Assembly (NCBI RefSeq): GCF_964355755.1
Contig: NC_092676.1
Location: forward strand, 3,697,888-3,761,887
Direction of reading: 5' to 3'
Length of the DNA: 64,000 bases
Origin: Antedon mediterranea
Taxonomy: Eukaryota > Animalia > Echinodermata
Shown: positions 1 through 55,553 of the stretch, piece after piece
Numbering within the stretch: the stretch's first letter is position 1
Layout: every line of letters starts with the position of its first letter
The notes under the pieces: generated by a model
Told to the model about the DNA's origin: nothing
Seen by the model: only the letters and a program-made list of their open reading frames with translations
Databases searched by the model: none
Program-made: the position numbers and the translations under genes

Positions 1-330
1 AGATGGAAATGAGGTCTATATTAATCAGCCAATCAGAACGAACGAATTTGACGATTTGGATGGATATATAGAAAATGAGAATGAAATATACGTAGATGGA
101 AATGAGGTCAATATTAATCAGCAAAGCAGAGTGAACAAATTTGAAAATTTGGATGGATATATAGAAAATGAGAATGAAATATATGTAGATGGAAATAAGG
201 CTTATGTTAATCAGCCAATCAGAGAAAATGAATTTGAACATTTTGATTAATATATAGAAAATGAGAATGAAATATACATAGATGGAAATGAGGTCGATAT
301 ATTAATCAGCCAATCAGAGCGAACATTTTT
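1..330 (+). repeat. 3' end of a D-type Ig-receptor locus: 93-nt (31-aa) ENEIYVDG tail repeats, partial at window edge
   Basis: Units of YIENENEIYVDGNEVxINQxxRxNxFExL match the tail ORFs at 14042-14464 and 33670-33918; in-frame stop at 248-250. Confidence 0.8.
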
Positions 331-743
331 TAACATTTAACGTTTAATATTCAAAACTTTAAAAAGTTCCTTATTAAATTTACACGCTTACATTGGTTTT
401 ATTAATTACACAGTATGTCATGAAAACAATGCAATTGGTTAAAATGTTTACACTATGGGGTTACTACAAAATTTTATACACTAGCTACTGTATATCTATG
501 CCATACAAATATCGAAAATACAAGAAAAACAAAACTGTGTTATGGTTGATCGAGTTTGATTAGCTACCAGATAATGAGTAAAAACTACAGAGTTTTGAAT
601 GTAAATTGTAAAACTTTCGTTGTATGAGGAACAAGATGCATACTGTAGATGCTACAGTGTATTCTGCACATTCTACTATCGCTGGCTTCAACTACTTTTC
701 TCTACTCTACCTTTCTACATGATCAAACAACTTTGAAATCAAC

Positions 744-2372
744 ATGACTGGAGATTGTGATGTTTTCTTCCTGGTTGTATTGACTTTATTGTCTTCATCT
801 TCACTTGCTAATGTTGAGTTTGTTACTAAGCCACCATCAAATGTGACTGTCTATCCAGGTCAGAATGTTTCACTGCCTTGTGTTTTTGAGAATTTAATTC
901 TAAATCACCACATAGTAGAATGGAGTTATTGGCCAAGTTACGAGTATAAGGAGATTATTTCACATGACAGAAATATTTTGTTACCAAGTATTAATAACAT
1001 TGCTGAAAGTTACTCAATTCTAGGTGATGAAATGAATTTCACACTTTTTATCAAAATACCAAGTTCAATAGACTTTAAATCATCTTCTAGTATAAAAACT
1101 GATTATAGATGCTCTGTGTATGAGCTAATCAAAGATGTCCCTATTGAAATAGCAATTTCAACTGTCGTCATACCGAAATATACATTTCATTCTCCAGTGT
1201 GTGGAGCAATCATCAAAACTGTTGTCATGGGAGAAACATTATTATTAGGATGTTGGCCACCAGAGACAGATTATAATGTTACAACAATTTTAACTGTAAA
1301 CAAACAAGTTCTACCTACTACTTATTATAATGGGGGCATTGCTTACAACTTGACTGTAACAAAAGAGTACCATAATGCAGTGTTTGTATGTGAATCGAGA
1401 AGAAAAGAAACAAATGAGACCAGAAGTTGCTCTGTAGGCCCACTCACTGTCAACTACAAACCAGAGATTAACATCACACAGATATCACCACTGGAATACA
1501 TCTGTACTGCAGAGGCTAGACCACCTGTTGATACAACAGTCTGGATTGTGGAATCTAGTGTTCCAGAAGATCACTTTACTATTTCAAATAAGACTTTGAA
1601 ATTTATTAAATTGCCAAAAGTTGGTTCTGAAATAACATGTGAAGCAGGAAATCTTTTGGGAAAAGAATCCAAGTCAATGATCATTCCATTGTTGAACAAT
1701 AATGATGAAGAAAAAATCAAAATTTACATGATCATATTATGCGTTGTAATAACTATTAACATCATTGTTGCAATTGGCGTTTGCTACCTTAAATATAAAA
1801 AGAAACAAAATAATAACAATACTGATGATGACTATGATGATACCACTGAAAGGCAGGAGAGACAAGATGAAGATGAATATCAAATACCTGACAAAAGTAC
1901 CAGTCAACATTACCAATCATTAACATCAGAAACAATGGCTACTAAAAATGATACCACTTATGAAACTGCTTTCACAATTGACAAAGGTCAGAGTGCAAAG
2001 GTCATACAAGATACTTTACCATTCTTGACCTCTATTGATGTACAAAAGATAGAAACTGTATATGATACAACTTATGCTGAATGTGCTGTTAACAAAGAAG
2101 ATGGCACAAAATATGAAGTCATTCCTGATCAGAAGGTAGAAAAGACATCTGGTAAAGTTGATGTGAATAATCCACATGTAAGGAAACGACCTAAAGGACC
2201 TGAATGTGATGAACTTTATATTGAAATCATTGATGACAAAGAAGATATCACAAAACATGAAAGCTGTGAAAACACATCCACAACTAGTGCAGTTTATGTC
2301 AACAATCCATGTGTCAGGAAACAACAGCCTACAGGAACTATATGTGATGAACCTTTATATAGAAATCATTGA
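744..2372 (+). CDS. Single-ORF IgSF type I receptor G1 (SP-V-Ig-Ig-TM-A-type Tyr tail), 542 aa
   Basis: Signal peptide (FFLVVLTLLSSSSLA); V domain with LPC..EW..FTLFI..YRC; two more Cys-paired domains; TM IYMIILCVVITINIIVAIGVCY followed by a basic stretch; tail motifs YDD, YQI, YQSL, YET, YEVI, YVNN. A +1 insertion near 2352 shifts the last few codons. Confidence 0.9.
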   Translation: MTGDCDVFFLVVLTLLSSSSLANVEFVTKPPSNVTVYPGQNVSLPCVFENLILNHHIVEWSYWPSYEYKEIISHDRNILLPSINNIAESYSILGDEMNFTLFIKIPSSIDFKSSSSIKTDYRCSVYELIKDVPIEIAISTVVIPKYTFHSPVCGAIIKTVVMGETLLLGCWPPETDYNVTTILTVNKQVLPTTYYNGGIAYNLTVTKEYHNAVFVCESRRKETNETRSCSVGPLTVNYKPEINITQISPLEYICTAEARPPVDTTVWIVESSVPEDHFTISNKTLKFIKLPKVGSEITCEAGNLLGKESKSMIIPLLNNNDEEKIKIYMIILCVVITINIIVAIGVCYLKYKKKQNNNNTDDDYDDTTERQERQDEDEYQIPDKSTSQHYQSLTSETMATKNDTTYETAFTIDKGQSAKVIQDTLPFLTSIDVQKIETVYDTTYAECAVNKEDGTKYEVIPDQKVEKTSGKVDVNNPHVRKRPKGPECDELYIEIIDDKEDITKHESCENTSTTSAVYVNNPCVRKQQPTGTICDEPLYRNH

Positions 2373-4699: not shown

Positions 4700-5790
4700 A
4701 AATATTGCTACTGTATATTAGAAATAACTATTTCAGCCTACCATGGAGTAATATGATAATAGTTAGTATACCTCCATGCTATTAAAACTCTTCAGACAAT
4801 AATAATGGAATAGAATGGCAGAGGATGAAAAAAAAAACATATTGCAGAGTGCAAGAGTGTAATTTCACTTTTCCTGCTCCAGTGCACAAAGAAATGTTAA
4901 TGCTATGGTTTCTGAACCTGATCAGCTCTCAGCCAATGAGTGAACAGCAGAGTATTACCAATACCAAAAAAAAAACCACAGGTACTTTTATTACTCAAAA
5001 CCTATCACAATAATCTCATGGTTAACTGAGTCTGATCAACTCTCAGCCAATGAGTAAACAGCAGAGGATTATCAATACTAAAAGAATTTTTTGTGTGTGT
5101 GTGTGTGTTATTTTTCACTGTAAACTTGTTGCACATCTCATTGAGACTGTGCCTTTGATTTAAAAGAGATACAATAAAAGTTCAGTTCAGGTACGAACTT
5201 ATCACAATGACCTCATGGTTGACTGAACAACTCTCAGCCAATGAGTGAACAGCAGAAAATTATCAATGTATTAGTTATTACTTCCATTATTTGTTTTCAC
5301 TAGTAGTACTCAATATAGTATTTGTTGGTTTGAAATCAATTATTTCCTTAACTTTCTATACAACAACTTTAAACCACCTGTTTATGAAACAGTCTGGATT
5401 GTGAAAAACAACAATACTCTAAAGTATTAACATTCAGTGAACCATCTGAGGTTGATCACCTGACAAGTGTAACATGCAAAGGGCAAAATGTTATTGGGAC
5501 GGCAATAAAAACATTAAGTATTCAAAAGAAATGTTAATATGTTATAAATGTAAAGATGACAACATTGGAATGCTCTACTAATTGTAAACCTACAATCATT
5601 ATAACAACGTCAGAAAAAAACAAATTATAACTACTAATTATGACGGATTATACATTGGACACAATATTAATGTAACAAAAGGTAAACACAATGCAATGTT
5701 TATTTGTAGTTCAAAGAAGAACATTTCTAAAATTTGTATGACGATTCCAAATCGCAAGATAACGACAACCGTTCCTGTAACACGTAATCA
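4700..5790 (+). pseudogene. D-type receptor remnant: promoter modules plus degraded Ig domains 3-4
   Basis: 5373-5785 aligns by eye with 32921-33373 (ccacctgtt.atgaaacagtctggattgtg, acatgcaaagg.caaaatgttattggg, actaattatgacggattatacattgga) with deletions and stops. Confidence 0.75.
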
Positions 5791-7496: not shown

Positions 7497-8309
7497 ATGA
7501 TCAACAACTTTGAAACCAACATGACTGAAGATTGTGATAATGTTTTCTTCCTGGTTGTATTGACTTTATTGTCTTCTTCTTCACTTGCTAATGTTGAGTT
7601 TGTTACTAAGCCACCATCAAATGTGACTGTCTATCGAGGTCAGAGTGTTTCACTGCCTTGTGTTTTTAGGAATTTAATTCCAAATCACCATATAGTAGAA
7701 TGGACTTATTGGCCAAGTTATGAGGAGAATGAGATTATTTCACATGACAGAAATATTTTGTTACCAAGTATTAATAACATTGCTGAAAGGTACTCAATTC
7801 TAGGTGAGGGAATGAATTTTACAATTGCTATCAAAATACCAAGATTAATAGATTTTAAATTATCTTCTAGTATAAGAACTCATTATATATGCTCTGTGTT
7901 AGAACCAAGCAAAGATGTCATAGTAACAGCAACCTCAACTGTTATTATAAAGAAACAACCATTTAGTACTCTAAACAAAGATGAGGAAAACAGTAATAAC
8001 ATTTCAATTATCATCGTTGTAGTTATTGTTGGTTTTGGTATGATTGTTGTCCTCATGATTCTCTGTTTTTCCAGAAAAAAGAAAAGTCAAATAGAAAATA
8101 AAAAAAAAATGAACAAAAATAGTTCTCAGCCAAATACATTAACAACCAACAAACTTGTTTACGATTATGTAGCAGTCACTGAAATCGAGTTAGAAGATTA
8201 TCAGGAAGTGGAGAATGAATTTTACGTTGGCGGTGATATTGTTATCAATGCAAAAAGTAAAACAGAATATGAAAATGTAAACCAATACAACTTAAAGGTC
8301 AGAGACTAA
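7497..8309 (+). CDS. Single-V-domain IgSF receptor G2 (SP-V-TM-shortened B-type tail); start may be 7521
   Basis: V domain followed directly by stalk and TM; tail YDYV, YQEV, YVG, YENV. The homologous rest of the B tail (to ~8677) is out of frame. Confidence 0.85.
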   Translation: MINNFETNMTEDCDNVFFLVVLTLLSSSSLANVEFVTKPPSNVTVYRGQSVSLPCVFRNLIPNHHIVEWTYWPSYEENEIISHDRNILLPSINNIAERYSILGEGMNFTIAIKIPRLIDFKLSSSIRTHYICSVLEPSKDVIVTATSTVIIKKQPFSTLNKDEENSNNISIIIVVVIVGFGMIVVLMILCFSRKKKSQIENKKKMNKNSSQPNTLTTNKLVYDYVAVTEIELEDYQEVENEFYVGGDIVINAKSKTEYENVNQYNLKVRD

Positions 8310-10398: not shown

Positions 10399-12132
10399 AT
10401 GTATAAATACAGTGTTTGCTTCCTTGTGATGTGGATTGCATTGGTTTCTTCTTTTTGTGAGTTTGTTACTAAGCCACCATCAACAGTGACTGTCTATCCA
10501 GGTCAGAATGTTTCACTGCCTTGTGTTTTTGATAAATGTTTACATGAACATCAATACACAGTAGAATGGAGTTATTGGCCAGTCACGTTTGAATCTGCAG
10601 AGATTATTATTATTTCAAATGACAAAAATCTTTTGTTACCAAGTTTTGATCAAATTGCTGAAAGTTACTCAATTCAAGGTTATCGAACGAATTTCACACT
10701 TTTCATCAAAATACCAAGTTTAATTAATTTTAGATTTTCAAGTGTTAGCAGTCAGTATAGATGTTCTGTGTTTGACCCAAGAAACAGTGTCCCTGTTAAA
10801 ATAGCAACTTCAACTGTCATTATGCAGAAACCAACATTTCATTCTCCAGTGTGTAGAAAAATCAAGACAACTGTTGTCATTGGAGAAACATTATCATTAA
10901 GATGGATTTTACTCACCAATAACAGATTATGATGTAACAACAATTTTAACTGTGAACAAACAAGTTCTACCTACAATTATTGCTTACAACTTGACTGTGT
11001 AACAAAAGAGTACCATAATGCAGTGTTTGTATGTGAATCAAGAAGAAAAGAAACAAATGAGACAAGAAGTTGCTCTGTTGGCCCACTCACGGTCAACTAT
11101 AAACCAGAGATTAACATCACACAGATATCACCACTGGAATACATCTGTACTGCAGAGGCTAGACCACCTGTTGATACAACAGTCTGGATTGTGGAATCTA
11201 GTGTTCCAGAAGATCACTTTACTATTTCAAATAAGACTTTGAAATTTACTAAATTGCCAAAAGTTGGTTCTGAAATAACATGTGAAGCAGGCAATCTTTT
11301 GGGAGAAGATTCCAAGTCAATGATCATTCCATTGTTGAACAATAATGATGAAGAAAAAATAAGAATTTACATGATCATATTATGCATTGTTATAACTATT
11401 AACATCATTGTTGCAATTGGCGTTTGCTACCGTAAATATAAAAAGAAACAAAATAATAACATTACTGATGATGACTATGATGATACCACTGAAAGGCAGG
11501 AGAGACAAGATGAAGATGAATATCAAATACCTGACAAAAGTACCAGTCAACATTACCAATCATTAAAATTAGAAAAAGTTGCTACTAATAAAGATACTAC
11601 TTATGAAACTACTTTCACAATTGACAAAGGTCAGAGTGCAAGTGTCATGCCAGATATATACATGAGCTCTATTGATGGTGGACCAAAGATAGAAACTGTG
11701 TATGATACAGCTTATGCTGAATGTGCTGTTAACGAAAAAGATGGCACAAAATATGAAGTCATTCCTGATAAGAATGTAGAAAAGACATCGGGCGAAGTTT
11801 ATGTGAATAATCCACGTGAAAGGAAGCAACAACCTAAAGGACCTGAATGTAATGAACCACATATAGAAATTGTTGTTGACAAACAAGACATTTTTACAAA
11901 ACATGCTGATGTTGAAAACACATCCACACCTAGTGCAGTTTATGTGAATAATCCACATGTCAGGAAACAACAACCTAAAGGACCTGTATGTGATGAACCA
12001 CAAAAAGAAATTGTTGATGACAAACAAGACATCACAAAACATGTTGATGTTGAAAACACTTCCACATCCAGTTCTATTTATGTCAATAATCCGCATGTTA
12101 AAATACAGCCATCTACAAACATTCAGAAATAG
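10399..12132 (+). pseudogene. A-type IgSF receptor G3 with frameshifts in Ig domain 2
   Basis: MYKYSVCF signal peptide and V domain; indels at ~10905-11000 give a stop at 10932; the downstream ORF 11023-12132 encodes the rest, with three YVNNP motifs. Confidence 0.85.
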
Positions 12133-13722: not shown

Positions 13723-14464
13723 ATGATGCATTCTGGTAATATTTACCTACTGATTGTATTGACTTTATTATCTTTGTCTTCATCATATGATTCAAAGTTT
13801 GTTACTAGGCCATCATCAACATTAATTGTTTTTCAAGGTCAAATTCTTTCTCAATACTAATAATAACACTACTAATTTTGATTATTGTACAGAAGTAATC
13901 TGTTTTATTATTATTATAGTAATTGTCTGTTTATATACACAAAAACAAAGAAAGTTAAATCAAAAAATGAAACTACACTGTACAACCAAACCTTCACAAC
14001 AGGAAGACAAGGAGGAGGATTCAATGGTTTTAAACTAAGCAATGGGAAACATGGACAAGTATCAGGAAACAGAAAATGAAATATACGTAGATGGAAATGA
14101 GGTTGATATTAATCAGTCAATCAGAGCAAACGAATTTGAAGATTTGGATGGATATATAGAAAATGAGAATGAAATATACGTAGATGGAAATGAGGTTGAT
14201 ATTAATCAGCCAATCAGAACGAACGAATTTGAAGTTTTGAATGAATATATAGAAAATGAGAATGAAATATACATAGATGGAAATGAGGTTGATATTAATC
14301 AGCCAATCAGAGTGAACAAATTTGAAGATTTGAAAGGATATATAGAAAATGAGAATGAAATATATGTAGATGGAAATGAGGTCAATATTAATCAGCCAAT
14401 CAGAGTGAACAAATTTGAAGACTTGAATGAATATATAGAAAATGAAATATATCAAGTAACTTAA
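13723..14464 (+). pseudogene. D-type receptor remnant G4: signal peptide joined to TM/tail, Ig domains deleted
   Basis: MMHSGNIYLLIVLTLLSLSSSYDSKFVTRPSSTLIVFQGQ..* then an out-of-frame TM (IIIIVIVCLYTQK), DSMVLN-TAA and a 140-aa open repeat ORF. Confidence 0.75.
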
Positions 14465-16185: not shown

Positions 16186-16995
16186 ATGATCAACAACTTT
16201 GAAATCAACATGACTGGAGATTGTGATAATGTTTTCTTCCTGGTTGTATTGACTTTATTGTCTTCTTCTTCACTTGCTAATGTTGAGTTTGTTACTAAGC
16301 CACCATCAACAGTGACTGTCTATCCAGGTCAGAATGTTTCACTGCCTTGTGTTTTTAGGAATTTAACTCCAACTCACCACATAGTAGAATGGAGTTATTG
16401 GCCAAGTTATGACATCAAGTACAATATTTCAAAGGACAGAACTCTTTTGTTACCAAGTATTGATAATATTGCTGAAAGTTACTCAATTCTAGGTGATGGA
16501 ATGAATTTCACAATTGTTATCAAAATACCAAGTTTATTAGACTTTAAATTATCTTCTAGTATAAGAACTTATTATATATGCTCTGTGTTAGAACCAAGCA
16601 AAGGTGTCATAATAACAGCAACCTCAACTGTTATTATAAAGATACAACCATTTAGTACTCTAAACAAAGATGAGGAAAACAGTAATAACTTTTCAATTAT
16701 TACCGTTGTAGTTATTGTTGGATTTGGTATGATTGTTGTCCTCATGATTCTCTGTTTTTCCAGAAAAAAGAAAAGTCAAATAGAAAATGAAAAACAGAAA
16801 AAAAATAGTTCTCAGCAAAATACATTAACAACCAATAAACTTATTTACGATTACGCCACAGTCACTGAAATCGAGTTAGAAGATTATCAGGAAGTGGAGA
16901 ATGAATTTTACATTGGCGGTGATATTGTTATCAATGCAGAAAGTAAAACAGAATATGAAAATGTAAACCAATACAACTTAAAGGTCAGAGACTAA
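16186..16995 (+). CDS. Single-V-domain IgSF receptor G5, paralogue of G2; start may be 16210
   Basis: Same architecture and same tail truncation (YNLKVRD*) as G2. Confidence 0.85.
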   Translation: MINNFEINMTGDCDNVFFLVVLTLLSSSSLANVEFVTKPPSTVTVYPGQNVSLPCVFRNLTPTHHIVEWSYWPSYDIKYNISKDRTLLLPSIDNIAESYSILGDGMNFTIVIKIPSLLDFKLSSSIRTYYICSVLEPSKGVIITATSTVIIKIQPFSTLNKDEENSNNFSIITVVVIVGFGMIVVLMILCFSRKKKSQIENEKQKKNSSQQNTLTTNKLIYDYATVTEIELEDYQEVENEFYIGGDIVINAESKTEYENVNQYNLKVRD

Positions 16996-19096: not shown

Positions 19097-21274
19097 ATGT
19101 ATAAATACAGTGTTTGCTTCCTTGTGATGTGGATTGCATTGGTTTCTTCTTTTTGTGAGTTTGTTACTATGCCACCATCAACAGTGAATGTATATCCAGG
19201 TCAGAATGAATGTTTCACTGCCTTGTGTTTTTGGTACCGGTAAATGTTTACATGAACATCAATACACAGTAAAATGGAGTTATTGGCCAGTCAAGTTTGA
19301 AGCTACAGAGATTATAACTATTTCAAATGACAAAAATCTTTTGTTACTAAGTTTTGATAACATTGCTGAAAGTTACTCAATTCAAGGTTATTTCAAGAAT
19401 TTCACACTTTTCATCAAAATACCAAGTTTAATTAATTTTAGATCTTCCAGTGTTAGCAGTCAGTATAGATGTTCTGTGTTTGAGCCAAATGGTAAAGGTG
19501 TCCCTGTTAAAACAGCAACTTCAACTGTCATTATACAGAAACCAAAATTTAGTAATCCAATTTGTGGAATAATCATCACTCTTGTTGTCATTGGACAAAC
19601 ATTATCATTAGAATGTTACTCACCAGTAAGAGACTATGATGTAACAACAATTTTAACTGTAAACAAACAAGTTCTACCTACTTATTATAATGGGGGCATT
19701 GCTTACAACTTGACTGTAACAAAAGAGTACCATAATGCAGTGTTTGTATGTGAATCGAGAAGAAAAGAAACAAATGAGACCAGAAGTTGCTCTGTTGGCC
19801 CACTCACTGTCAACTATAAACCAGAGATTAACATCACACAGATATCACCACTGGAATACATCTGTACTGCAGAGGCTAGACCACCTGTTGATACAACAGT
19901 CTGGATTGTGGAATCTAGTGTTCCAGAAGATCACTTTACTATTTCAAATAAGACTTTGAAATTTATTAAATTGCCAAAAGTTGGTTCTGAAATAACATGT
20001 GAAGCAGGAAATCTTTTGGGAAAAGAATCCAAGTCAATGATCATTCCATTGTTGAACAATAATGATGAAGACAAAATCAGAATTTACATGATCATATTAT
20101 GCATTGTTATAACTAATAACATCATTGTTGCAATTGGCGTTTGCTACCGTAAACATAAAAAGAAACAAAATAATAACATTACTGATGATGACTATGATGA
20201 TACCACTGTTCCTGAAAGGCAAGAAAGACAAGATGAAGATGAAAAATATCAAATAACTGACAAAAGCACCAGTCAACATTACCAATCATTAACATCAGAA
20301 AGATTGGCTACTAAATATGATACCACTTATGAAACTACTCTCACAATTGACAAAGGTCAGAGTGCAAGGGTTATGCCAGATGCTTTTCCATTCATGACCT
20401 CTATTGATGGTGGACAAAAGATAGAAACTGTATATGATACAGCTTATGCTGAATGTGCTGTTAACGAAAAAGATGACAAAAAATATGAAGTCATTCCTGA
20501 TCAGAATGTAGAAAAGACATCTGATGAAGTTTATGTGAATAATCCACATGTCAGGAAACAACAACCTAAAGGACCTGAATGTGATGAACCACAAATAGAA
20601 ATTGTTGTTGACAAACAAGACATCACAAAACATGCTGATGTTGAAAACACTTCCACATCCAGTTCTGTATATGTTAACAATCCACATGTCAGGAAACAAC
20701 AACCTAAAGGACCTGAATGTTATGAACCACAAATAGAAATTGTTGTTGACAAACAAGACATCACAAAACATGCTGATGTTGAAAACACTTCCACATCCAG
20801 TTCTGTATGTTAACAATCCACATGTCAGGAAACAACAACCTAAAGGTCCTGAATGTGATGAACCACAAATAAAAATTGTTGTTGACAAACAAGACATCAC
20901 AAAACATGCTGATGTTGAAAACACTTCCATATCCAGTTCTGTATATGTTAACAATCCACATGTCAGGAAACAACAACCTAAAGGACCTGAATGTAATGAA
21001 CCACAAATAGAAATTGTTGTTGACAAACAAGACATCACAAAACATGCTGATGTTGAAAACACTTCCACATCCAGTTCTGTTTATGTCAATAATCCACATG
21101 TCAGGAAGCAACAACCTAAAGGATCCTGTATGTGATGAACCACAAAAAGAAATTGTTGTTGACAAACAAGACATCACAAAACATGCTGATGTTGAAAATA
21201 CTTCCACATCCAGTTCTATTTATGTCAATAATCCGCATGTTAGGAAACAGCCATCTACAAACATTCAGAAATAG
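19097..21274 (+). pseudogene. A-type IgSF receptor G6 with a 4-nt duplication frameshift and expanded tail repeats
   Basis: cagaatgaatgttt at ~19203 (aatg duplicated) breaks the V domain start; further frameshifts at ~20807 and ~21123. Confidence 0.85.
20530..21250 (+). repeat. 138-nt (46-aa) coding tandem repeat, about 5 units plus a partial unit
   Basis: Unit VYVNNPHVRKQQPKGPECDEPQIEIVVDKQDITKHADVENTSTSSS; period 138 (aatccacatg at 20541 and 20679). Confidence 0.9.
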
Positions 21275-33666: not shown

Positions 33667-33669
33667 GCA

Positions 33670-33918
33670 ATGGGAAACATGGACAAGTATCAGGAAACAG
33701 AAAATGAAATATACGTAGATGGAAATGAGGTTGATATTAATCAGCCAATCAGAGTGAACAAATTTGAAGATTTGGATGGATATATAGAAAATGAGAATGA
33801 AATATACGTAGATGGAAATGAGGTCTATATTAATCAGTCTATCAGAGCAAACAAATTTGAACATTTGGATAGATATATAGAAAATGAGAATGAAATATAC
33901 GAAGGAATCGGAAAATGA
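33670..33918 (+). other. In-frame ENEIY-repeat tail ORF directly after the G7 stop codon
   Basis: aac TAA gca ATG gga; same frame as G7; two 93-nt units. Confidence 0.7.
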
Positions 33919-34436
33919 CAAGTAAAGATAAGTAACAGAACTTTTTAATCTCAAATTCTAAGGGACAAAAAGCAAACACAATATAACAACAAAATTATAA
34001 ATATGTTTATAAAATCCATTTAAACAGTGTATAATATTCAAAACTTTTTTTTTCAAGTGCCCTATTAAATTTACATGCTTACATTGATTTTATTATTTTT
34101 ATTATTAAGGTGCACAGTATGTCATGAGAACATTGCCAGCAATTGTTTAAAATGTTTAAACTATGGGGTTACTACTACAGAATATTATACACTAGCTAGT
34201 ATATCTATGCCATACTAATATCGAAAATACAAGAAAAACAAAACTGTGTTATGGTTGATCAGTTTGATTAGCTACCAGCCAATGAGTAAAAACTACAGAG
34301 TTTTGAATGTAAATTGTAAAACTTTCGTTGTATGAGAACTAGATACATACTGTAGTGTATTCTGCACATTCTACTATCGCTGGCTTCAACTATCGATTCT
34401 TTCTTTTCTACAAGATCAAACAACTTTGAAACCAAC

Positions 34437-36170
34437 ATGACTGGAGATTGTGATAATGGTTTCTTCGTGGTTGTATTGACTTTATTGTCTTCATCTTCAC
34501 TTGCTAATGTTGAGTTTGTTACTAGGCCACCATCAACAGTGACTGTCTATCCAGGTCAGAATGTTTCACTGCCTTGTGTTTTTAGGAATTTAATTCAGAA
34601 TCAGCACAAAGTAGTATGGAGTTATTGGCCAAGTATGTTAAAGATTATTTCAATTGACAGAAATCTCTCATTAACAAGTATTGATAACATTGCTGAAAGT
34701 TACTCAATTCTAGGTGATGGAATGAATTTCACACTTTTTATCAAAATATCCAGAACAATAGATTTTGAATCATCTTCTAATATTAGAAATGATTTTAGAT
34801 GTTCTGTGTTTGAACTAAGCCAAACTTTCCCTTTTAAACTAACAAATCAAGGTGTCCCTGTTGACAGAGCACCTTCAACTGTTATTATACAACCAACATT
34901 TAGTTATCCAGTGTGTGTACAGATCAACACCACTGTTGTCGTTGGAGAAACATTATCATTAAGATGTTACTCACCAGTAACAGATTATGATGTAACAACA
35001 ATTTTAACATTGAACAAACAAGTTCTACCTACAATTTATTATAATGGGTTAATTACTTACAACTTGACTGTAACAAAAGAGTACCATAATGCAGTGTTTG
35101 TATGTGAATCAAGAAGAAAAGAAACAAATGAAACAAGAAACTGCTCTGTTGGCCCACTCACTGTCAACTACAAACCAGAGATTAACATCACACAGATATC
35201 ACCACTGGAATACATCTGTACAGCAGAGGCTAGACCACCAGTTAATGAAATTAACTGGAATGTGGAGCCAAAAATTGCTAGAAAACATTTCAATATTTCA
35301 AAAGATTCATTAACATTGACTAAAAAATTGAAAGCTGATGCTGTTATCAAATGTTGGGCAGAAAATACAGTTGGAAAAACCAAAGAAAAATTTATCATTT
35401 ATTCTAACTTTACTAGTCAGAATCAAGATACTCCAAATGAAAACAATGGTAACATGATAGCTATTATCATTATGGCCAGTTTTGCATTTTTGATGGTTAA
35501 TATTTTTGTTATTGTCCTCATGATTCTCTGTTTTTTCCGTCAAAAGCGATTCAAAAAAGAAAAGAAAAAGCAGAACAAAAATAGTTCTCAGCCAAATAAA
35601 TTAAAAAATAAAAAACATGTTTACGATTACGCCACAGTCACTGAAATCGACTTAGAAGATTATCAGGAAATGGAGAATGAATTGTACGTTGGCGGCGATC
35701 TTGTTATCAATACAGAAAGTAAAACAGAAAATGAAAATCTAAACCAATTTGAAGGTCAGAGACAGGAGATTGACAATTTACTGTATGATGAGCCAACTAC
35801 AAGCTGTAAAGAAGACGCGATGAATAGTGGAAGGAATGAAAAAGGAAACCAAGGAGGACATTTTTATTCCAAAGCAAATAACAAATATTATAAAGAACTA
35901 GAAGATTATCAGGAAACAGAGAACAAATTGTACGTTGGCAGCGATATTGTTAGCAAAAGTGAAAGAAGTAAAGACAATAGAGACCAATTTCAGGGTCAGA
36001 GACAGATTAACAATGTACTATATGATGATCAGCCAACTACAAGTCGTAAAGAAGAGGCGATGAATAATGGAAAACAAAGAGTAAATATTATTTATTCCAA
36101 AGTGAATAAACAAGATTATAAAGAATGTGAAAATGAAATATATCAAGGTTCTGATATATTGTCAAAGTAA
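34437..36170 (+). CDS. Intact B-type IgSF receptor G8 (SP-V-Ig-Ig-TM-long Tyr tail with ITIM-consensus IIYSKV), 577 aa
   Basis: Uninterrupted ORF; internally duplicated tail (EDYQE.EN.LYVG twice, LYD..EP/QPTTS twice); AATAAA at ~36197. Confidence 0.92.
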   Translation: MTGDCDNGFFVVVLTLLSSSSLANVEFVTRPPSTVTVYPGQNVSLPCVFRNLIQNQHKVVWSYWPSMLKIISIDRNLSLTSIDNIAESYSILGDGMNFTLFIKISRTIDFESSSNIRNDFRCSVFELSQTFPFKLTNQGVPVDRAPSTVIIQPTFSYPVCVQINTTVVVGETLSLRCYSPVTDYDVTTILTLNKQVLPTIYYNGLITYNLTVTKEYHNAVFVCESRRKETNETRNCSVGPLTVNYKPEINITQISPLEYICTAEARPPVNEINWNVEPKIARKHFNISKDSLTLTKKLKADAVIKCWAENTVGKTKEKFIIYSNFTSQNQDTPNENNGNMIAIIIMASFAFLMVNIFVIVLMILCFFRQKRFKKEKKKQNKNSSQPNKLKNKKHVYDYATVTEIDLEDYQEMENELYVGGDLVINTESKTENENLNQFEGQRQEIDNLLYDEPTTSCKEDAMNSGRNEKGNQGGHFYSKANNKYYKELEDYQETENKLYVGSDIVSKSERSKDNRDQFQGQRQINNVLYDDQPTTSRKEEAMNNGKQRVNIIYSKVNKQDYKECENEIYQGSDILSK

Positions 36171-38446: not shown

Positions 38447-40098
38447 ATGTATAAATACAGTGTTTGCTTCCTGGTGTTGTGGATTTCATTGGTTTCAAAG
38501 ATATTTTGTAATGTTGGGTTTGTTACTAGGCCACCATCAACAGTGACTGTCTATCCAGATCAGAATGTTTCACTGCCTTGTGTTTTTAATAATTTAATTA
38601 CAAATCACTACATAGTAGAATGGACTAGTTCGCAGGGTAACATAGAACATCCAGATATTATTTCAAATGACAGAAATATTTTGTTACCAAGTACTGATAA
38701 CATTACTGAAAGTTACTCAATTCTAGGTGATGGCATGAATTTCACACTTTTTATCAAAATACCAAGTTTAATAATAGATTTTGGATCAGCTTCTAGTATC
38801 AGCACTCTTTATGCATGTTCTGTGTTTGACGCAAAAGAGAAAGATGTCCCTGTTATAACATCAACTTCAATTGTCATTATACAACCGATATTTAGAGATC
38901 CAGTTTGTTTAAAAATCAACAATACTGTTGTCATTGGAGAAACATTATCATTAGGATGTTACTCATCAGAGACATATTATGAAGTTAAAACAATTTTAAA
39001 AGTGAACAAACAAGTTTTACATACTAATTATTATGTTGGGTCCTTCAATGTTTACAACTTGACAGTAACAAAGGAACACCATAATGCAGTGTTTGTATGT
39101 GAATCAAGAAGAAAAGAAACAAATGAGACCAGAAGTTGCTCTGTTGGCCCACTCACTGTCGGCCCACTCACTGTCAACTACAAACCAGAGATTAACATCA
39201 CACAAATATCACCACTAGCATTCCACTGTACTGCAGAGGCTAGACCACCTGTTAATGAAACAGTCTGGATTATAGAATCTAGTGTTCCAAAAGATCACTT
39301 TACTATTTTATATGGGATTTTGATATTTACTGAATTGCCAAAAGTTGTTTTTGAAATAACATGTGAAGCAGAAAATCTTGTGGGAGAAGATTCCAAGTCA
39401 ATGATCATTCCATTGTTGAAAAATAATTATGAAGAAAAAATAAGAATTTACTTGATCACATTATGCGTTGTTATAACTATTAACATCCTTTTTGCAATTG
39501 TACTTTGCTACCGTAAATATAAAAAGAAACAAAATAATAACATTACTGATGATGACTATGGTGATACCACTGAAAGGCAAGAAAGACAAAATGAAGATGA
39601 ATATCAAATACCTGACAAAAGTACCAGTCAACATTACCAATCATTAACATCAGAAACAATGACTGCCAATAATGATACCACTGAAAGGCAAGAAAGACAA
39701 GATGAAGATGAATATCAAATACCTGACAAAAGTACCAGTCAACATTACCAATCATTAAAATTAGAAAAAGTTGCTACTAATAACGATACTACTTATGAAC
39801 TACTTTCACAATTGACAAAGGTCAGAGTGCAAGGGTCATGCCAGATATATACATGAGCTCTATTGATGGTGGACAAAAGATAGAAACTGTGTATGATACA
39901 GCTTACGCTGAATGTGCTGTTAACAGAGAAGATGGCACAAAACATGAAGTAATTCCTGATCAGAATGAAGAAAACACAGCTGGCGAAGTTTATGTGAATA
40001 ATCCACGTGTCAGGAAACAACAAGGACCTGTGATGAACTTTATATTGAAATCATTGATGAAAAATAGGATGGCACAAAACAGAGTGAAGAATATCTAA
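38447..40098 (+). CDS. A-type IgSF receptor G9; ectodomain and TM intact, tail frameshifted (stop at 39856)
   Basis: MYKYSVCF leader; in-frame 15-nt duplication GPLTVGPLTV; duplicated DTTERQERQ..YQIPDKSTSQHYQSL; a single A is lost at ~39798 relative to G3. Confidence 0.8.
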
Positions 40099-41873: not shown

Positions 41874-42405
41874 CTTTTACGGTGTTTTGAGGAACTGGGA
41901 TATGAATAGTTTCTTTTTCTCTGCCTTCTTTCATTTTGTAATGTCAGTATATTTAACCTGGCTTTGCTTGTTTAAATTCCAAGCATGTCCGCTACGTACC
42001 ATTATGCAAATTATACCTTTGCATACCCGGTTGCATACCTAATGAATTATTCTCCGTTTTATACACGGGGAGTGCAACGCTTACGCTACCTATGTATTAG
42101 TAATACGGCAGCACTAAACAGAATTGTTTTATGTTTAATTATTGTTATATTTAGTTTTTTATTTTATTATATTATTGTTAACTTTTACCTAATGTTTAAA
42201 TTATCTATGATACCTATAAATAATGTGCCAATCCAACTCTACAACTGATGTGAAATTTAACCCTTTTGTGGCATACGAGAACATGAATATTAATGAAAAT
42301 GTTGATCCACACTCTCAATTTTATGCTAGTTAAAATGAATCTAATTATTTTGATCCAGAAACATTCTCAGAGAATTTCTCTAAGCATAACAATGATAAAA
42401 ATATT

Positions 42406-48180: not shown

Positions 48181-48932
48181 CCAATCAGTGCATGATACAT
48201 AATTATCAAATGAATATTCAATAGTTGGAATGTGTTGAAAATCAAAAGATTATTTTGATTTTCAATAGTGTACACTTCCTTGTATATCTTTGAAATACAG
48301 AGGGTGCTGTTTTGACTTTCAACAAACTTTCTTTGTAAAAGAAAATATTGCTACTGTATATTAGAAATAATTATTTCGGCCTATCATGGAGTAATATGAT
48401 AATAGTATACCTCCATGCTAATTAAACTTTTTAGACAATAATAATGGAATAGAATGGCTGAGGATGAAAAAAAAACATACTGCAGAGTGCAAGAGTGTAA
48501 TTTCATTTTTCCTGCTGCAAAGCATCAAGAAATGTTAATGTTATGGTTTCAGAACCTCATCAGCTCTCAGCCCATGAGTGAACAGCAGAGGATTATCAAT
48601 ACCCAAAAAAAAAACTGCAGGTACAGTCCTTTAACAAAACTCAAACCTTTCAAATGGATCTTATGGTTGACCGAGTCTGATCAACTGTTAATACTTGTAG
48701 TTCAAAGAAGAACATTTCTAAAATTTGTATCACAATTCCAAATTGCAAGATATTGACAACTGCTCCTGTAACAAGCAATCAAAATTATTTATTTTATATA
48801 TGCTCAATACTATTAAAAAACCCCCTTCAAAAACTTTTTTTTTAAATATTTTTAATATCCTGTTCCATGTTGGGTGTAGTTTGTAATGTGTAAGGCTAAC
48901 AGTATTCTACTGGCAGATACCTGCTTTTACTT

Positions 48933-50496: not shown

Positions 50497-52204
50497 ATGA
50501 CTGGAGATTGTAATGTTTTCTTCCTGGTTGTATTGACTTTATTGTCTTCATCTTCACTTGCTGATGTTGAGTTTGTTACTAGGCCACCATCAACATTGAC
50601 TGTCTATCCAGGTCAGAATGTTTCACTGCCTTGTGTTTTTAGGAATTTAATTCAGAATCAGCACAAAGTAGTATGGAGTTATTGGCAAAGTATGTTTAAG
50701 ATTATTTCAGTTGACAGAAATCTCTCATTAACAAGTATTAATAACATTGCTGAAAGTTACTCAATTCTAGGTGATGGAATGAATTTCACACTTTTTATCA
50801 AAATATCCAGAACAATAGATTTTGAATCATCTTCTAATATTAGAAATGATTTTAGATGTTCTGTGTTTGAACTAAGCCAAACTTTCCCTTTTAAAATAAC
50901 AAATCAGAATGTCCCTGTTGACAGAGCACCTTCAACTGTTATTATACAACCAACATTTAGTTATCCAGTGTGTGTACAGATCAACACCACTGTTGTCGTT
51001 GGAGAAACATTATCATTAAGATGTTACTCACCAGTAACAGATTATGATGTAAGAACAATTTTAACATTGAAAAAACAAGTTCTACCTACAATTTATTATA
51101 ATGGGTTAATTACTTACAACTTGACTGTAACAAAAGAGTACCATAATGCAGTGTTTGTATGTGAATCAAGAAGAAAAGAAACAAATGAAACAAGAAACTG
51201 CTCTGTTGGCCCACTCACTGTCAACTACAAACCAGAGATTAACATCACACAGATATCACCACTGGAATACATCTGTACAGCAGAGGCTAGACCACCAGTT
51301 AATGAAATTAACTGGAATGTGGAGCCAAAAATTGCTAGAAAACATTTCAATATTTCAAAAGATTCATTAACATTGACTAAAAAATTGAAAGCTGATGCTG
51401 TTATCAAATGTTGGGCAGAAAATACAGTTGGAAAAACCAACTAACTTTACTAGTCAGAATCAAGATACTCCAAATGAAAACAATGGTAACATGATAGTTA
51501 TTATCATTATGGCCAGTTTTGCATTTTTGATGGTTAATATTTTTGTTATTGTCCTCATGATTCTCTGTTTTTTCCGTCAAAAGCGATTCAAAAAAGAAAA
51601 GAAAAAGCAGAACAAAAATAGTTCTCAGCCAAATAAATTAAAAAATGAAAAACATGTTTACGATTACGCCACAGTCACTGAAATCGACTTAGAAGATTAT
51701 CAGGAAATGGAGAATGAATTGTATGTTGGCGGCGATCTTGTTATCAATACAGAAAGTAAAACACAAAATGAAAATCTAAACCAATTTGAAGGTCAGAGAC
51801 GGGTGATTGACAATGTACTATATGATGAGCCAACTACAAGTAGTAAAGAAGACGCGATGAATAGTGGAAGGAATGAAAAAGGAAACCAAGGAGGACATTT
51901 TTATTCCAAAGCAAATAACAAATATTATAAAGAACTAGAAGATTATCAGGAAACAGAGAATAAATTGTACATTGGTGGTGATATTGTTAGCAATAGTGAA
52001 AGAAGTAAAGACAATAGAGACCAATTTCAGGGTCAGAGACAGATTAACAATGTACTATATGGTGAGCCAACTACAAGTCGTAAAGAAGAGGCGATGAATA
52101 ATGGAAAACAAAGAGTAAATATTATTTATTCCAAAGTGAATAAACAAGATTATAAAGAATGTGAAAATGAAATATATCAAGGTTCTGATATATTGTCAAA
52201 GTAA
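50497..52204 (+). pseudogene. B-type receptor G10: a 20-nt deletion gives a stop at 51444 after Ig domain 3 (pseudogene or secreted form)
   Basis: Near-identical to G8 but lacks agaaaaatttatcatttatt; TM and tail are open in another frame (51395-52204). Confidence 0.85.
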
Positions 52205-54056
52205 AATATTAATTAGCATAAGAAGATATCATAAATATATCGTTGTATAATGATTTAGAATAATGTAAACTCTATTTACCTAAAAAACATTTTATACTTT
52301 GTATTTGTAAATGTTCTGTATACACTGCTTCTCCTTCGGGAGGTTTTTAGAAATAAATAAAATTACTGTACTAATATAAAAATAAATAAGAGACTAATAT
52401 CATTGCTTTTTTCATTAAATAAATATATAATTACATCGTGTGTAACATTATAAAATTGTCTCTTTTTATCTTTAGTTTTATTATCACTATTTGCATATTA
52501 TTTTTCAATTCAGCCTAAATATTGTTTAATGGAAATAACCTGAATATTATGCTATATATAATGTTTTCTCCTACACTCACTTCAGCATAGTGGGCCAAGC
52601 CAAATGAAAATTTAAGTTTGTGGTGGTACAGTATATATTATTGGTTTAAACTGAAAATTACTGTGGGCTTATTACCTCCAGGTTGGGCTTACACTTGGAT
52701 CTATATGGTACTTATTATAATAATATCTAATTTGTGCAACAAAATAATTGTGTAGAAAAAACATTTTTCAGTATTTGTTCTCAGTGTTAACAACTTTACA
52801 CCAAAATAATAAAATGTGAAGTGTCTTGATTACCGTAGACAGATTGTTACTTGTGGCAGTCATTACACTTGCTATTACCAGTTCTTGGAAAAAAACCTCA
52901 ATACAAATAAGAATAAATTATATTGTTTAACCAATAAAAAAAAGGTTTTCTTTTCAAGAAAACACAATTAAGTATATTTTTACAACAATAATTCAGTATT
53001 ATTTCATTTGTATTATTTTCCAGCATTTAACAGTTACTAGTCACTTCCTTTGAATGTTTATTTAAGCCACAAACAAGCACACTTCTATGCAATTAAAAAC
53101 AAACACTGTACTTAATACAGGAATTAGAATTTAATTAAACTAATAATATGTACTGAGAACAAATTAGTAAAACACTCTATTTTGTCATGTAATAATTTTT
53201 ATTGTGTTAACAATTTTTTTCTTGAAATATACTATATATCTTGTTAATCATCAAAGATAGATTTTAAGTCATTTTTGCTTGTATTTGTCTTTAAAAACAG
53301 GTTTGATTGCTAGTATCAAGTTCCATATGCTTAATAGAATGCTGTTTTTTGTAAACAATTTGATGTCCATAATGGAGATATAAAAACAAATGTTGAATAT
53401 AAGAAATGGGAGAAATTATTTCCCTTATTTAAGCAGTGTATATTGCAAGAAATATATATTACATTTTGTGGTGTGGAAATTGACAAATAATAATAATAAA
53501 AACTTATTTATACTCTTCATATTATTATTTTCATTTAAACTTCATTCAATAAATTAAATTTAATTTATTTAACTTTAATAAAATTTAATTAATTTAACTT
53601 TAATAAAAGGATTAAATGTTTCAATCCTTATTTGGTCCACATTTTCATAATTATCAGGAAATACATATTATTCTATGAACCGACCACAGGTACAGATATC
53701 AAATTGCATGGTTGAATGGGTCTAGCTCTCAGCCAATCAGAGTAAAGTTGTATTTTTTTTAACAATATAAGGAAGTGTATATTCAAAAATCATAAAGGTG
53801 CACTCTGGTATGTTATTGTAACACTATTATACAGAATACAGTAAATACCACAACAGGAATAACGTCAGTTTCACATTCTGAGAAAGTTTCAGCTTGAAAT
53901 TATTATTAAGTATCTAGTACAGTAGCCTTGAGAAACTTCTTGAAAGTTTTGGAAGAACAACTCCAACAGTATTTTGATTCAGATACAGTTTATCAAGTTT
54001 TTTTTTTTTAAGGCTTCAAAATCTGATTTACAAGTTTTAATTTTCAACAACAAGTG

Positions 54057-55553
54057 ATGTATAAATACAGTGTTTGCTTCCTGGTGTTGTGGATTTCATT
54101 GGTTTCAAAGATATTTTGTAATGTTGAATTTGTTACTAGGCCACCATCAACAGTGACTGTCTATCCAGGTCAGAGTGTTACACTGCCTTGTGTTTTTGAT
54201 GACAAATTAATTCTAGATCACCACAAAGTAGAATGGACTTATTCTCAAACTGACTTTGAGGCTCCAGATATTATTTCAAATGACAACAATATTTTGTTAA
54301 CAAGTATTGACAACATTGCTGAAAGTTACTTAATTGTAGGTGATGAAAAGAATTTCACACTTTTTATCAAAATACCAAGATTAATAGATTTTAAATCATC
54401 TTCTAGTATTAGCACTTATTATAGATGTTCTGTGCTTGAACCAAGCAAAGATGTCCCTGTTGAAACAGCAACTTCAACTGTTATTATACAATCAATATTT
54501 AGAGATCCAGTTTGTTTAAAAATTAAAAAAACTGTTGTCATTGGAGAAACATTATCATTAGGATGTTACTCACCAGAGACATATTATGACGTTAAAACAA
54601 TTTTAAAAGTGAACAAACAAGTTTTACATACTAATTATTATGTTGAGACCACCAATGTTTACAACTTGACTGTCACAAAGGAATGTCATGATGCAGTGTT
54701 TGTATGTGAATCAAGAAGAAAAAAAACAAATGAAATCAGAAATTGCTCTGTTGGCCCACTCACTGTCAACTATAAACCAGAGATTTACATCACACAAATA
54801 TCACCAATGGAATACATCTGTACTGCAGAGGCTAGACCACCTGTTAATCAAACAGTCTGGATTATAGAGCCCAACCTTCCCCAGGAAAATTATGAGATAT
54901 CTAATAATACATTAATATTGACTGAAAAGTTAAAGGCTGATTCAGTTATAAAATGCTGGGCAGAAAATTCAGTTGGACCAACAACAAAAAGTTTCAACTT
55001 TGATCAAATAAATGATAAAAATGAAGAAACGGGCAAAAAAAATTATATTTTCCTTATTATTGTTGCAGTCAGTGTTGGAATTGTTGTTGTAATAAGTATA
55101 CTATTGATGATCTATTTTTTAAGAAAAAAAACATTGCATCGAGAAAATAAAACAACAAAACAAGGCGCGTCACAAAATAAAATAAAAAGCAAAGGTAAAG
55201 AAGAACTTGTTTACGACTACGCTACAATAGACGTTACAGATCAGGAAACCGAGAACAGTAATATAAGCAGTAATAAAAGAAACAATGGGCCATCTAAAGA
55301 ACTTAACGATAAGAAAAAGAAACAACACACCTATTCTGAAGTGGATGAGGTGGAAAGTGATAACATACCTGTTTATTCTGAACTAAACAAACCAGATTAT
55401 AAGGAATGTGAAAATGAGATATATGAGGGTCCGACCGGAGTGGCTGATTCTAAAGAGGAAGGAGTACAAGATAATGTAGATGTTTACTCCAAAGTGAACA
55501 AACCAGATTACAAAGAGTGTGAAAATGAGATATATCAAGGTCCTGAAATGTAA
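54057..55553 (+). CDS. Intact IgSF receptor G11 (A-type leader and V domain, B-like domain 3 and tail)
   Basis: MYKYSVCF leader; KLKADSVIKCWAEN; tail YDYA, TYSEV, VYSEL, VYSKV and YKECENEIY twice. Confidence 0.92.
   Translation: MYKYSVCFLVLWISLVSKIFCNVEFVTRPPSTVTVYPGQSVTLPCVFDDKLILDHHKVEWTYSQTDFEAPDIISNDNNILLTSIDNIAESYLIVGDEKNFTLFIKIPRLIDFKSSSSISTYYRCSVLEPSKDVPVETATSTVIIQSIFRDPVCLKIKKTVVIGETLSLGCYSPETYYDVKTILKVNKQVLHTNYYVETTNVYNLTVTKECHDAVFVCESRRKKTNEIRNCSVGPLTVNYKPEIYITQISPMEYICTAEARPPVNQTVWIIEPNLPQENYEISNNTLILTEKLKADSVIKCWAENSVGPTTKSFNFDQINDKNEETGKKNYIFLIIVAVSVGIVVVISILLMIYFLRKKTLHRENKTTKQGASQNKIKSKGKEELVYDYATIDVTDQETENSNISSNKRNNGPSKELNDKKKKQHTYSEVDEVESDNIPVYSELNKPDYKECENEIYEGPTGVADSKEEGVQDNVDVYSKVNKPDYKECENEIYQGPEM

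Follow-up and report, generated by a model that had tools for sequence, protein, structure and literature searches.

What are the tandemly arranged immunoglobulin (Ig) genes found in one region of the crinoid Antedon mediterranea, and what might they recognize? A preliminary description, made from the DNA alone, counted about 14 loci, roughly half of them disrupted, and proposed an undescribed, lineage-restricted family of immune or allorecognition receptors. In the window, by which we mean the whole stretch of 64,000 nucleotides that was analysed, tblastn and three-frame reading give 14 loci within positions 1-55553, every one on the + strand, and 7 of the 14 are broken or partial, in agreement with the description. 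Three (G1, G7 and G10) are full length and are single-ORF genes as described, the coding region of each running in one open reading frame (ORF) from signal peptide to tail. Four (G2, G4, G6 and G8) are open from the signal peptide to the transmembrane (TM) segment with a shortened tail, three (G3, G5 and G9) are interrupted ahead of the TM, three are relics (R1, R2 and R3) and one (L0) is a tail alone, cut off by the window edge. The literature searched gave no description of this receptor cluster, which is apparently undescribed so far.

The array, which has a kinesin-14-like neighbour, consists of a three-gene cassette (types X, Y and Z) in five copies whose flanks have been duplicated along. 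Since flanks duplicate together with genes, retroposition of each copy is ruled out. The suggested tandem arrangement and birth-and-death turnover can be followed at the DNA level. L0 (1..300) is an X-type tail end with 93-bp tyrosine repeats, one stop and one frameshift; it matches 33717 onward and its gene begins upstream of the window. G1 (744..2372; 542 aa) has the plan SP-V-Ig-Ig-TM-tail A, with a Y-type promoter and signal peptide fused to Z-type D3, TM, tail and 3' flank. R1 (5370..5784), an X-type relic of D3 and a fourth Ig domain, has copies of a CCAAT-box-like motif upstream (~4900-5250). G2 (7521..8309; 262 aa) reads SP-V-TM-short tail B, with D2-D3 deleted and the remaining tail decayed to ~8680; in both G2 and its sister G4 (16210..16995; 261 aa) V is the lone Ig domain, and a 5-bp insertion in the tail is common to the two. 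G3 (10399..12132; Z-type, tail A), with several frameshifts in D2 (~10900-11000), is likely a pseudogene, as is G5 (19097..21274; Z-type, tail A with 138-bp repeats), which has 4 bp inserted near 19204, where V begins. The X-type relic R2 (13723..14464), in which an internal deletion fuses the signal peptide to the TM, carries an in-frame TAA (14036-14038) identical to that of G6, followed by 141 open codons of tyrosine repeats. G6 itself (32140..33918), also X-type, encodes V and three Ig-like domains in an ORF of 508 aa; its TAA (33664-33666) sits at the first tail tyrosine, leaving a tail of 28 aa without tyrosine, and the tyrosine-repeat frame beyond it is open as far as 33918. G7 (34437..36170; 577 aa) is a full Y-type ORF with tail B. 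In G8 (38447..40081; Z-type, tail A) the loss of 1 bp in a short A run at 39798 truncates the ORF to 469 aa, ending at 39856. This loss may be a private variant or an assembly error; contigs from all four runs have the extra base, and these contigs may be paralogues. R3 (48692..48780) is a short X-type relic with a CCAAT-motif region upstream (48183-48690). G9 (50497..52204), a young sister of G7 (95%), has a 20-bp deletion at 51441, ahead of the TM, and is possibly a pseudogene or else a predicted secreted ectodomain. G10 (54057..55553; 498 aa) joins a Z-type head to a tail B that is nearest to Anneissia relatives; across its upstream region and signal peptide it matches G8 at 97-98%.

The upstream motif, ATGGTTGA..RCCAATSA (for example 34251..34285, + strand, ahead of G7), occurs exactly nine times in the window, ahead of 7 of 10 genes and two relics, with variants at G1, G5 and G9. 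By chance 0.01 copies would be expected; the copies are linked by duplication and hence not independent. Introns do not account for the breaks, which are mostly unspliceable (indels of 4, 5, 7 or 20 bp, or a point stop at an aligned tyrosine), and the 1-bp loss in G8 is the sole plausible candidate for a long-read error.

Are these genes functional at all? If the array were mostly dead, its frames would be open only because the copies are young. The broken loci, tails cut in four more and the retroelements between cassettes would suit such an array. However, purifying selection on the D2-D3 junction (omega 0.27, p 0.0003) and on D3 (omega 0.38, p 0.0007) means that the genes have been coding; in addition, array copies retain their cysteines and core Trp, and tail motifs are kept in Anneissia and Antedon proteins. 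We give hardly any credit to a dead array.

The V domain, in turn, diversifies under positive selection. Model M2a is preferred over M1a with a likelihood ratio (LRT) of 33.3, and 16% of sites, chiefly in the BC, CC' and FG loops and the EF/F region, have omega ~5. This value was reached in none of 45 plain null simulations (maximum 5.5) and none of 48 recombinant ones (maximum 14.1). When columns near gaps are removed, the LRT drops to 12.4 (10 genes) or 6.2 (7 open ORFs), both inside the recombinant null range. Omega over the whole V domain is 0.9-1.0, and relaxed constraint would yield the same. There is no signal of recombination within V (PHI-like p 0.49). In three of four young pairs V has diverged 5-8 times more than the non-coding flank (0.167 vs 0.022 for G8/G10, 0.093 vs 0.018 for G2/G4, 0.074 vs 0.014 for G3/G5); in G7/G9 the two are equal. 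Synonymous divergence of the G8/G10 V is raised too (0.12 vs 0.022 in the flank), so segment exchange accounts for part of the V excess. The distal V domain therefore deserves the word variable, which the preliminary description gave it, for its high dN/dS and its excess divergence in young pairs, but not for its identity, which is 65% in V, 71% in the first part of D2, 93% at the D2-D3 junction and only 51% in the second part of D3.

Where do these genes come from? The proposed SP-V-(Ig)n-TM plan agrees with the Pfam V-set profile, which matches 7 of 8 family ORFs (all under the curated cut-off; the eighth ORF is without the first strands), and with an AlphaFold2 model of the G10 ectodomain showing three Ig domains (mean pLDDT 93.6). 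Among solved structures, the ectodomains of nectins and Necls come nearest in fold (Z 15.1, rmsd 5.2, 261 aligned), in a ranking where many further Ig proteins lie within 2 Z units. A PDB sequence search returned weak antibody light-chain matches alone (best E 5e-4), and the nearest language-model clusters, a lead only, are CD22/Siglec/MAG-like. In all 10 V domains the F-strand Cys is followed by Ser. Over 51 aligned sequences C131, C148, C195 and C208 are nearly or fully invariant; an extra Cys pair flanks D2 (P-x-C ... C-x-V-x-P), and in this branch V is non-canonical and D2 is without the core Trp. A homodimer prediction for G10 V-D2 scored 0.00, which we weigh neither for nor against binding.

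Although the preliminary description recognized no named family, the superfamily can be recognized: it is that of the intronless KirrelL/Kirrel2L/IgTM/Hypp1164-like Ig-TM proteins. By sequence comparison the genes are placed as a fast-evolving crinoid branch of this echinoderm V-Ig-Ig-TM superfamily, with a nectin-like fold. Aligned by hhalign over all three domains (99.7%, 290 columns), the family matches 7 database proteins that are KirrelL-like by eye, KirrelL itself not being among them; a search for KirrelL from one superfamily protein, P0034, returned only its Anneissia orthologue. To the 38 distant proteins that were aligned with them, the ectodomains show 18-28% identity. Within our searches close relatives are restricted to feather stars, as the proposal of a lineage-restricted family implies: they number six proteins, of which five are named crinoid models, and a subfamily profile search, word-seeded and of limited reach, found no members besides these six.

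This placement suggests a more ordinary role. The genes could, like KirrelL and IgTM, encode proteins for adhesion or cell fusion in development, in an unstable tandem expansion with V under relaxed selection; studied relatives in the superfamily have roles in skeletal cell fusion and branching, not in immunity (PMC8903837, PMC6768484). The shared superfamily with its three-domain profile match, the nectin and Necl folds, the intronless kirrelL gene and the overall V omega of ~1 would all agree with it. On the other hand, we find no clear one-to-one orthology: the genes form their own clade of tandem paralogues, and family ectodomains are 43-51% identical between A. mediterranea and Anneissia, where a conserved one-to-one pair of the same superfamily keeps 88%. 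A second expanded subfamily of crinoids likewise has ~40% identity between the two, and a high rate is thus not in itself peculiar to this family. The V domains in the window are also without the R..D-x-G-x-Y-x-C that KirrelL-class sequences keep (by eye), and the V sites with omega ~5 and the number of broken loci fit adhesion less well. We consider an adhesion role doubtful. If it were correct, the array would be an ordinary lineage-specific adhesion expansion.

Could the genes serve allorecognition instead, binding matching alleles in trans like Hydractinia Alr1 and Alr2? Clustered Ig-TM genes with tyrosine tails and pseudogenes would suit this. Among the variable sites are those of the CC' and FG loops, on the face used by nectin-like V domains in trans binding. 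Yet in two further samples from the best-matching organism, contigs spanning the G7/G9-type V have 1-2 differences in ~360 bases (about 99% identity), although at the matching cut-off of 94% they show a shared allele and divergent alleles would be invisible. This near identity weakens allorecognition, and the exon structure and Fn3-like domain of Alr are absent here. Hence, this part of the original proposal now seems quite unlikely. A V-type sequence missing from the window, found in runs of two organisms, counts towards the non-self explanation given below; runs of the second organism leave the G7 V loops uncovered, an observation to which we give no weight. One run guessed to be RNA covers intergenic DNA and repeats, and was therefore treated as DNA.

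The tails come in two unrelated types. Tail A has the motifs YDDT, YQIP-x7-YQSL and YVN, and tail B has YDYA, ENEIY and YSxV-NKxDY-KECENEIYQG. Tail A matches the relative P0005 and tail B the other five (P0001-4 and P0006), and A and B never match each other; that tail A is old depends on a single protein, P0005 (E 1e-3 to 1e-5). YSxV is kept in Anneissia tails. In this AT-rich window tyrosine content (four tails have 6.4%, translated non-coding DNA has 6.5-8.2%) is not above background, so only the cross-species conservation of particular tyrosine motifs counts; to that extent the notion of a tyrosine tail survives. Among 12 window tail stretches there is no strict ITAM, and ITIM (3) and ITSM (4) consensus sites do not exceed shuffles (p 0.05-0.29). 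The nearest approach to an ITAM, YxxP-x7-YxxL, occurs only in G1, G3, G8 and P0005; tail B of G7 has one ITIM-consensus site, IIYSKV. None of the 8 correctly placed window TM segments (G9b excluded) has a charged residue (K/R/D/E).

As in the paired receptors of vertebrates, recombination has joined heads to different tails. Both tail types occur in outside relatives, yet six window ectodomains form one clade (100/100 support), and grouping of ectodomains by tail A is rejected (p-AU 4e-13). The careful tree has 12 rows and leaves out G9, G2, G3, G4 and P0006; a 50-row tree is a quick tree only, from which P0006 was removed for its short length. In G1, and in G8 compared with G10, the switch lies at a D2-D3 junction block of 155 bp (35085..35239, + strand, in G7 coordinates) that is 90-100% identical in 8 genes.

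Fast-evolving tips and heads mixed with two old tail types make a role as a non-self sensor likely, and the array is likely a non-self receptor family with a putative immune role. Our preferred explanation, to which we give a probability of roughly 55%, is that these are three-Ig crinoid KirrelL-like receptors in which V likely recognizes a non-self ligand that keeps changing, of a microbe or parasite, and in which the tails, after predicted phosphorylation at conserved acidic tyrosine sites, would recruit SH2 proteins. The cassette was duplicated five times along with its flanks, and at the near-identical junction block gene conversion or unequal crossing-over would put a head on another tail. 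The receptor sets that result would have similar heads but different outputs, and would be joined by tail-less (G6) and possibly secreted (G9) forms. The assignment of activation to tail A and inhibition to tail B is a guess that draws only on the likeness of motifs.

Fertilisation proteins, too, show turnover at the species level and positive selection on a distal surface domain, and both would be expected of gamete- or symbiont-recognition proteins diversifying through sexual conflict or partner choice. Two long signalling tail types and many paralogues fit such proteins less well, and nothing in this analysis points to gonads; we regard this as very improbable.

A bolder version of the non-self receptor explanation can be offered as a tentative speculation. 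Crinoids might have built a paired-receptor system independently, from an intronless skeletal-fusion family, with a 155-bp crossover hinge under purifying selection re-coupling selected V heads to old tails of activating and inhibitory type; decoys without a tail, secreted forms and non-canonical tyrosine motifs would be part of it. Among echinoderm immune receptors, the known expansions are mainly those of the TLR, NLR, SRCR and SpTransformer families. If correct, a non-self receptor array with a variable V domain and swapped signalling tails would be the equivalent, in a deuterostome invertebrate, of KIR/Siglec/NITR-type arrays, derived from another ancestor. It would be relevant to the question whether paired Ig receptors were invented by vertebrates or evolved repeatedly, and would connect recognition with a gene family for skeletal cell fusion. 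Being single-exon, the genes are easy to clone, genotype and test.

How do the window genes compare with known systems? With nectin and Necl (CADM) they have in common the V-C-C three-domain fold, at 15-17% identity and hence in fold only. Nectins and Necls are conserved multi-exon genes with short tails and a PDZ-binding motif; the C-termini of the three full ORFs (DILSK, QGPEM, LYRNH) have no such motif. Siglecs and CD22 have a sialic-acid-binding Arg on the F strand and have lost the canonical F-strand Cys, whereas that Cys is kept in all 10 V domains of the window.

KirrelL, Kirrel2L, IgTM and Hypp1164 are closer, being likewise intronless with SP-V-Ig-Ig-TM and the extra Cys pair around D2; kirrelL is stated to be intronless, and the supplement 7 sequences show by eye the same D2 Cys pattern (PMC8903837). 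Those genes are conserved through echinoderm classes and have skeletal roles (PMC8903837), whereas the window branch is crinoid-restricted in our searches, tandem and half broken, with two tail types bearing tyrosine motifs. Sea urchin V-type Ig transmembrane genes are likewise putative echinoderm receptors with V domains, but are described as V-C1 (PMC3308324). Hydractinia Alr genes also form an invertebrate V-set Ig-TM cluster with pseudogenes and tail tyrosine motifs, but they have domains in separate exons that often lack the core Cys and Trp, an Fn3-like domain, true ITAMs and high polymorphism, with Alr1/2 alleles numbering in the tens to hundreds (PMC9546547); the window genes are single ORFs with three Ig domains in the model, and separate exons and an Fn3-like spacer are absent.

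Vertebrate paired and clustered Ig receptors include Siglec-5/14, Siglec-11/16, PILR, SIRP, CD300, NITR and NILT (PMC13358205, bioRxiv 2022.04.21.489081). Compared with these the window genes are single-ORF, have no strict ITAM and no charged TM residue, either of which would mark an activating member, and both of their tail types are long. The likeness is one of analogy and not of membership. Paired receptors are defined as linked genes that combine similar ectodomains with dissimilar tails and owe their form to duplication and conversion (PMC13358205), and in the window genes we find all of this, together with tandem birth-and-death turnover, lineage-specific ectodomain clades on older signalling tails, and tail-less and possibly secreted forms.

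Fourteen loci lie on one strand (+) within 1-55553 of the window (30% GC, animal DNA), as counted from open frames, tblastn and a three-frame reading. The tandem cluster of about 14 same-strand loci of the preliminary description is thereby borne out. Three loci are full length (G1, G7 and G10). In four (G2, G4, G6 and G8) the frame stays open across the membrane segment but the tail is shortened, and in three (G3, G5 and G9) it is broken ahead of that segment. The remainder are three relics (R1-R3) and L0, a tail that the window edge truncates. G6 and R2 share an in-frame TAA where the first tail tyrosine stands (33664-33918 and 14036-14464); beyond it, 83 codons in G6 and 141 in R2 stay open, made of 93-bp tyrosine repeats. 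It may mark a fixed tail-less form, or be a candidate for read-through.

Self-comparison of the window reveals that genes were duplicated together with their flanks (e. g. 7314-12098 and 16006-20825, 4.9 kb at 93%). The unit is a three-gene cassette, X-Y-Z, whose order is repeated five times along the cluster: (L0, G1), (R1, G2, G3), (R2, G4, G5), (G6, G7, G8) and (R3, G9, G10). A CCAAT-like motif is found 160-335 bases ahead of each start; upstream of X-type relics, two or three tandem copies are kept though the genes are dead (4900-5250, 13400-13550 and 48530-48690). G1 is a mosaic that stands in for Y and Z at once. Its upstream DNA and signal peptide are Y-like (94-99% to Y genes in the signal peptide), while its third Ig domain (D3), tail and 3' flank are Z-like (D3 97-100% to G3 and G5). 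G10 is 97% identical to G8 in upstream DNA, 98% in the signal peptide and 93% in the first part of the second Ig domain (D2), after which identity drops to 61% and 53%. Both switch points fall at a 155-bp block spanning the D2-D3 junction, which is 90-100% identical in all eight genes that have it.

LINE and DIRS-type retroelements separate the cassettes. The LINEs occupy 24495-27474, 41157-45255 and 48887-49495; the frame at 42334-45255 encodes an endonuclease-RT of 973 codons without breaks, with ORF1 upstream, so this insertion is possibly recent. The DIRS-type element (27475-31059, minus strand) has RT and tyrosine-recombinase-like frames and inverted ends of 183 bp, 96% alike. There are also two non-autonomous elements, one with inverted ends of 120 bp at 97% (14969-15652) and one that is a 400-bp palindrome at 79% (62169-62572), and a GC-richer array of about 20 tandem 62-bp copies (46655-48094). 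At the cluster end, a spliced kinesin-14-like gene (61012-63560, plus strand; ELRGNIRVHCR motif, weak Microtub_bd match) is arranged head to head with another spliced gene, one of acidic and basic exons (about 58090-60300, minus strand). This pair could serve as a synteny anchor.

Codon models were fitted with purpose-written code. In the distal V domain (10 genes, 102 codons) overall omega is 0.98, a value that adhesion or fusion proteins under relaxed selection would also give; that reading we consider unlikely. M2a is preferred over M1a (LRT 33.3) and places 16% of sites at omega of about 5. Neither the 45 null simulations run without recombination (maximum 5.5) nor the 48 with four reshuffled segments (maximum 14.1) reached that LRT. 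Once columns near gaps are removed, the LRT falls to 12.4, or to 6.2 for the seven open ORFs, so part of the signal lies in loops that are difficult to align. Purifying selection acts on the junction block (omega 0.27) and on the second part of D3 (0.38); the first part of D2 (0.67) is indistinguishable from 1. That the array is dead is the least probable of the alternatives, and very improbable. In three of four young duplicate pairs V diverges 5-8 times as much as non-coding flanks, the pair without excess being G7/G9; two older comparisons involving G1 give 1.5-2.3 times. V synonymous sites are also raised in G8/G10 and G2/G4, so V segments swapped with other copies account for part of the excess. 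The most variable element is the CC' loop (26% pair identity). The variable distal V domain proposed earlier holds for sites under selection, but needs correction on plain identity, where D3 (51%) diverges further than V (65%).

Other individuals bear on allorecognition. G7 is partly present in ten sequencing runs of four studies (at most 70% of its words), and V-type sequence absent from the window is seen at loose contig ends, so the family or its haplotypes reach beyond the window. In contigs of two other samples (best-matching organism), V of G7/G9 type has one or two differences. This weakens the case for Alr-like allelic diversity, and weakens it only, given the 94% cut-off of the comparison. 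We regard allorecognition as improbable.

Two unrelated intracellular tails are present, with no blastp match between them. Tail A belongs to G1, G3, G5, G8 and the database relative P0005; tail B to G2, G4, G7, G9 and G10, to the frames that follow the stop in G6 and R2, and to relatives P0001-4 and P0006. Six window ectodomains nevertheless form one clade (support 100/100), and a constraint uniting the A-tailed ones is rejected (p-AU 4e-13). On the simplest reading, both tails would predate the radiation of window ectodomains and heads would have been swapped from one to the other; for tail A, this age depends on P0005 only. Across species, tail A conserves the motifs YDDT and YQIP-x7-YQSL, and tail B conserves YDYA, (D)YQExENEIY and YSxV-NKxDY-KECENEIYQG. 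We liken ENEIY to a substrate site of Src-family kinases, YVN to a Grb2 site and IIYSKV to the ITIM of CEACAM1. A strict ITAM is found in none of 12 tail stretches, ITIM and ITSM matches there do not exceed shuffles, tail tyrosine content is not above background, and membrane segments have no charged residue. An acidic-tyrosine pattern, defined after the tails were inspected, is far above shuffles.

The AlphaFold2 model of the G10 ectodomain (51 aligned sequences, mean pLDDT 93.6) has three all-beta domains. Its best Foldseek matches are the three-domain Ig ectodomains of MAG, nectin-1 and Necl-4, and its best VIA-align matches Necl-4, nectin-1, nectin-3, DIP-theta and SIRP-gamma (Z 15.1-13.2, 16-18% identity). 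Such matches indicate fold, not family membership. The window family does not qualify as a member of the Siglecs, Alr proteins, nectins or KirrelL proper.

Among 1137 candidates, a search with the G7 ectodomain returned four proteins, which belong to Anneissia japonica and Antedon mediterranea; a full HMMER scan gave 56 matches, five with E below 1e-30. Profile search brings the subfamily to six: four Anneissia models, two on each of two contigs, plus a single Antedon model and an unnamed protein from ENA. Of 24 proteins looked up, 22 have names; these 22 are models from crinoids or hemichordates whose automatic names read uncharacterized or CADM-, kirrel-, nephrin-, LSAMP- or hemicentin-like. 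By this homology the window is most probably crinoid DNA. Among the models looked up, six from Antedon mediterranea in the distant set and one cluster member lie on a contig of one and the same length, 38.96 Mb. An extra Cys pair brackets D2, also in distant matches. By eye, the excerpted sequences of PMC8903837 supplement 7 (about 400 residues each compared) have a like pair in KirrelL, Kirrel2L, Hypp1164 and IgTM, and kirrelL has no introns in any echinoderm examined for it. Since, in addition, the window family aligns with seven database proteins of KirrelL-like look across all three domains (99.7%), it is a derived branch of this superfamily. It is not an orthologue, as its ectodomains are 43-51% identical between Antedon and Anneissia, against 88% for one one-to-one superfamily pair. 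The HMMER scan also includes a second expanded crinoid V-Ig-Ig-TM subfamily (P0011-P0014, P0016-P0018, P0020, P0022, P0026 and others), with tail QPxVY...W-x-R-S-x-G-x-QVP and about 40% identity between the two genera, in pairs that may not be orthologues. Long repeated-tyrosine tails occur in superfamily members P0009, P0024 and P0057, and P0009 (Anneissia) has three ITIM matches against 0.4 expected; tyrosine-tailed branches may hence have had more than one origin among crinoids and hemichordates.

Full-text searches of a largely open-access literature, judged mostly by titles and the opening of abstracts, brought up no description of the family, which is apparently undescribed. Related systems are treated in PMC8903837, PMC9546547, PMC3308324, PMC6768484, PMC13358205, PMC11999971 and bioRxiv 2022.04.21.489081. 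The family is real and testable, of unusual origin and with a clear signature of shuffling. Recognition of gametes or symbionts would be another use for it, and quite an improbable one. Our preferred reading, to which we give a probability of about 0.55, is that the cluster encodes receptors predicted to be expressed at the cell surface, to bind a fast-changing non-self ligand and to be phosphorylated on tail tyrosines, tails A and B giving unlike outputs. If correct, the cluster would work like a paired Ig receptor cluster.
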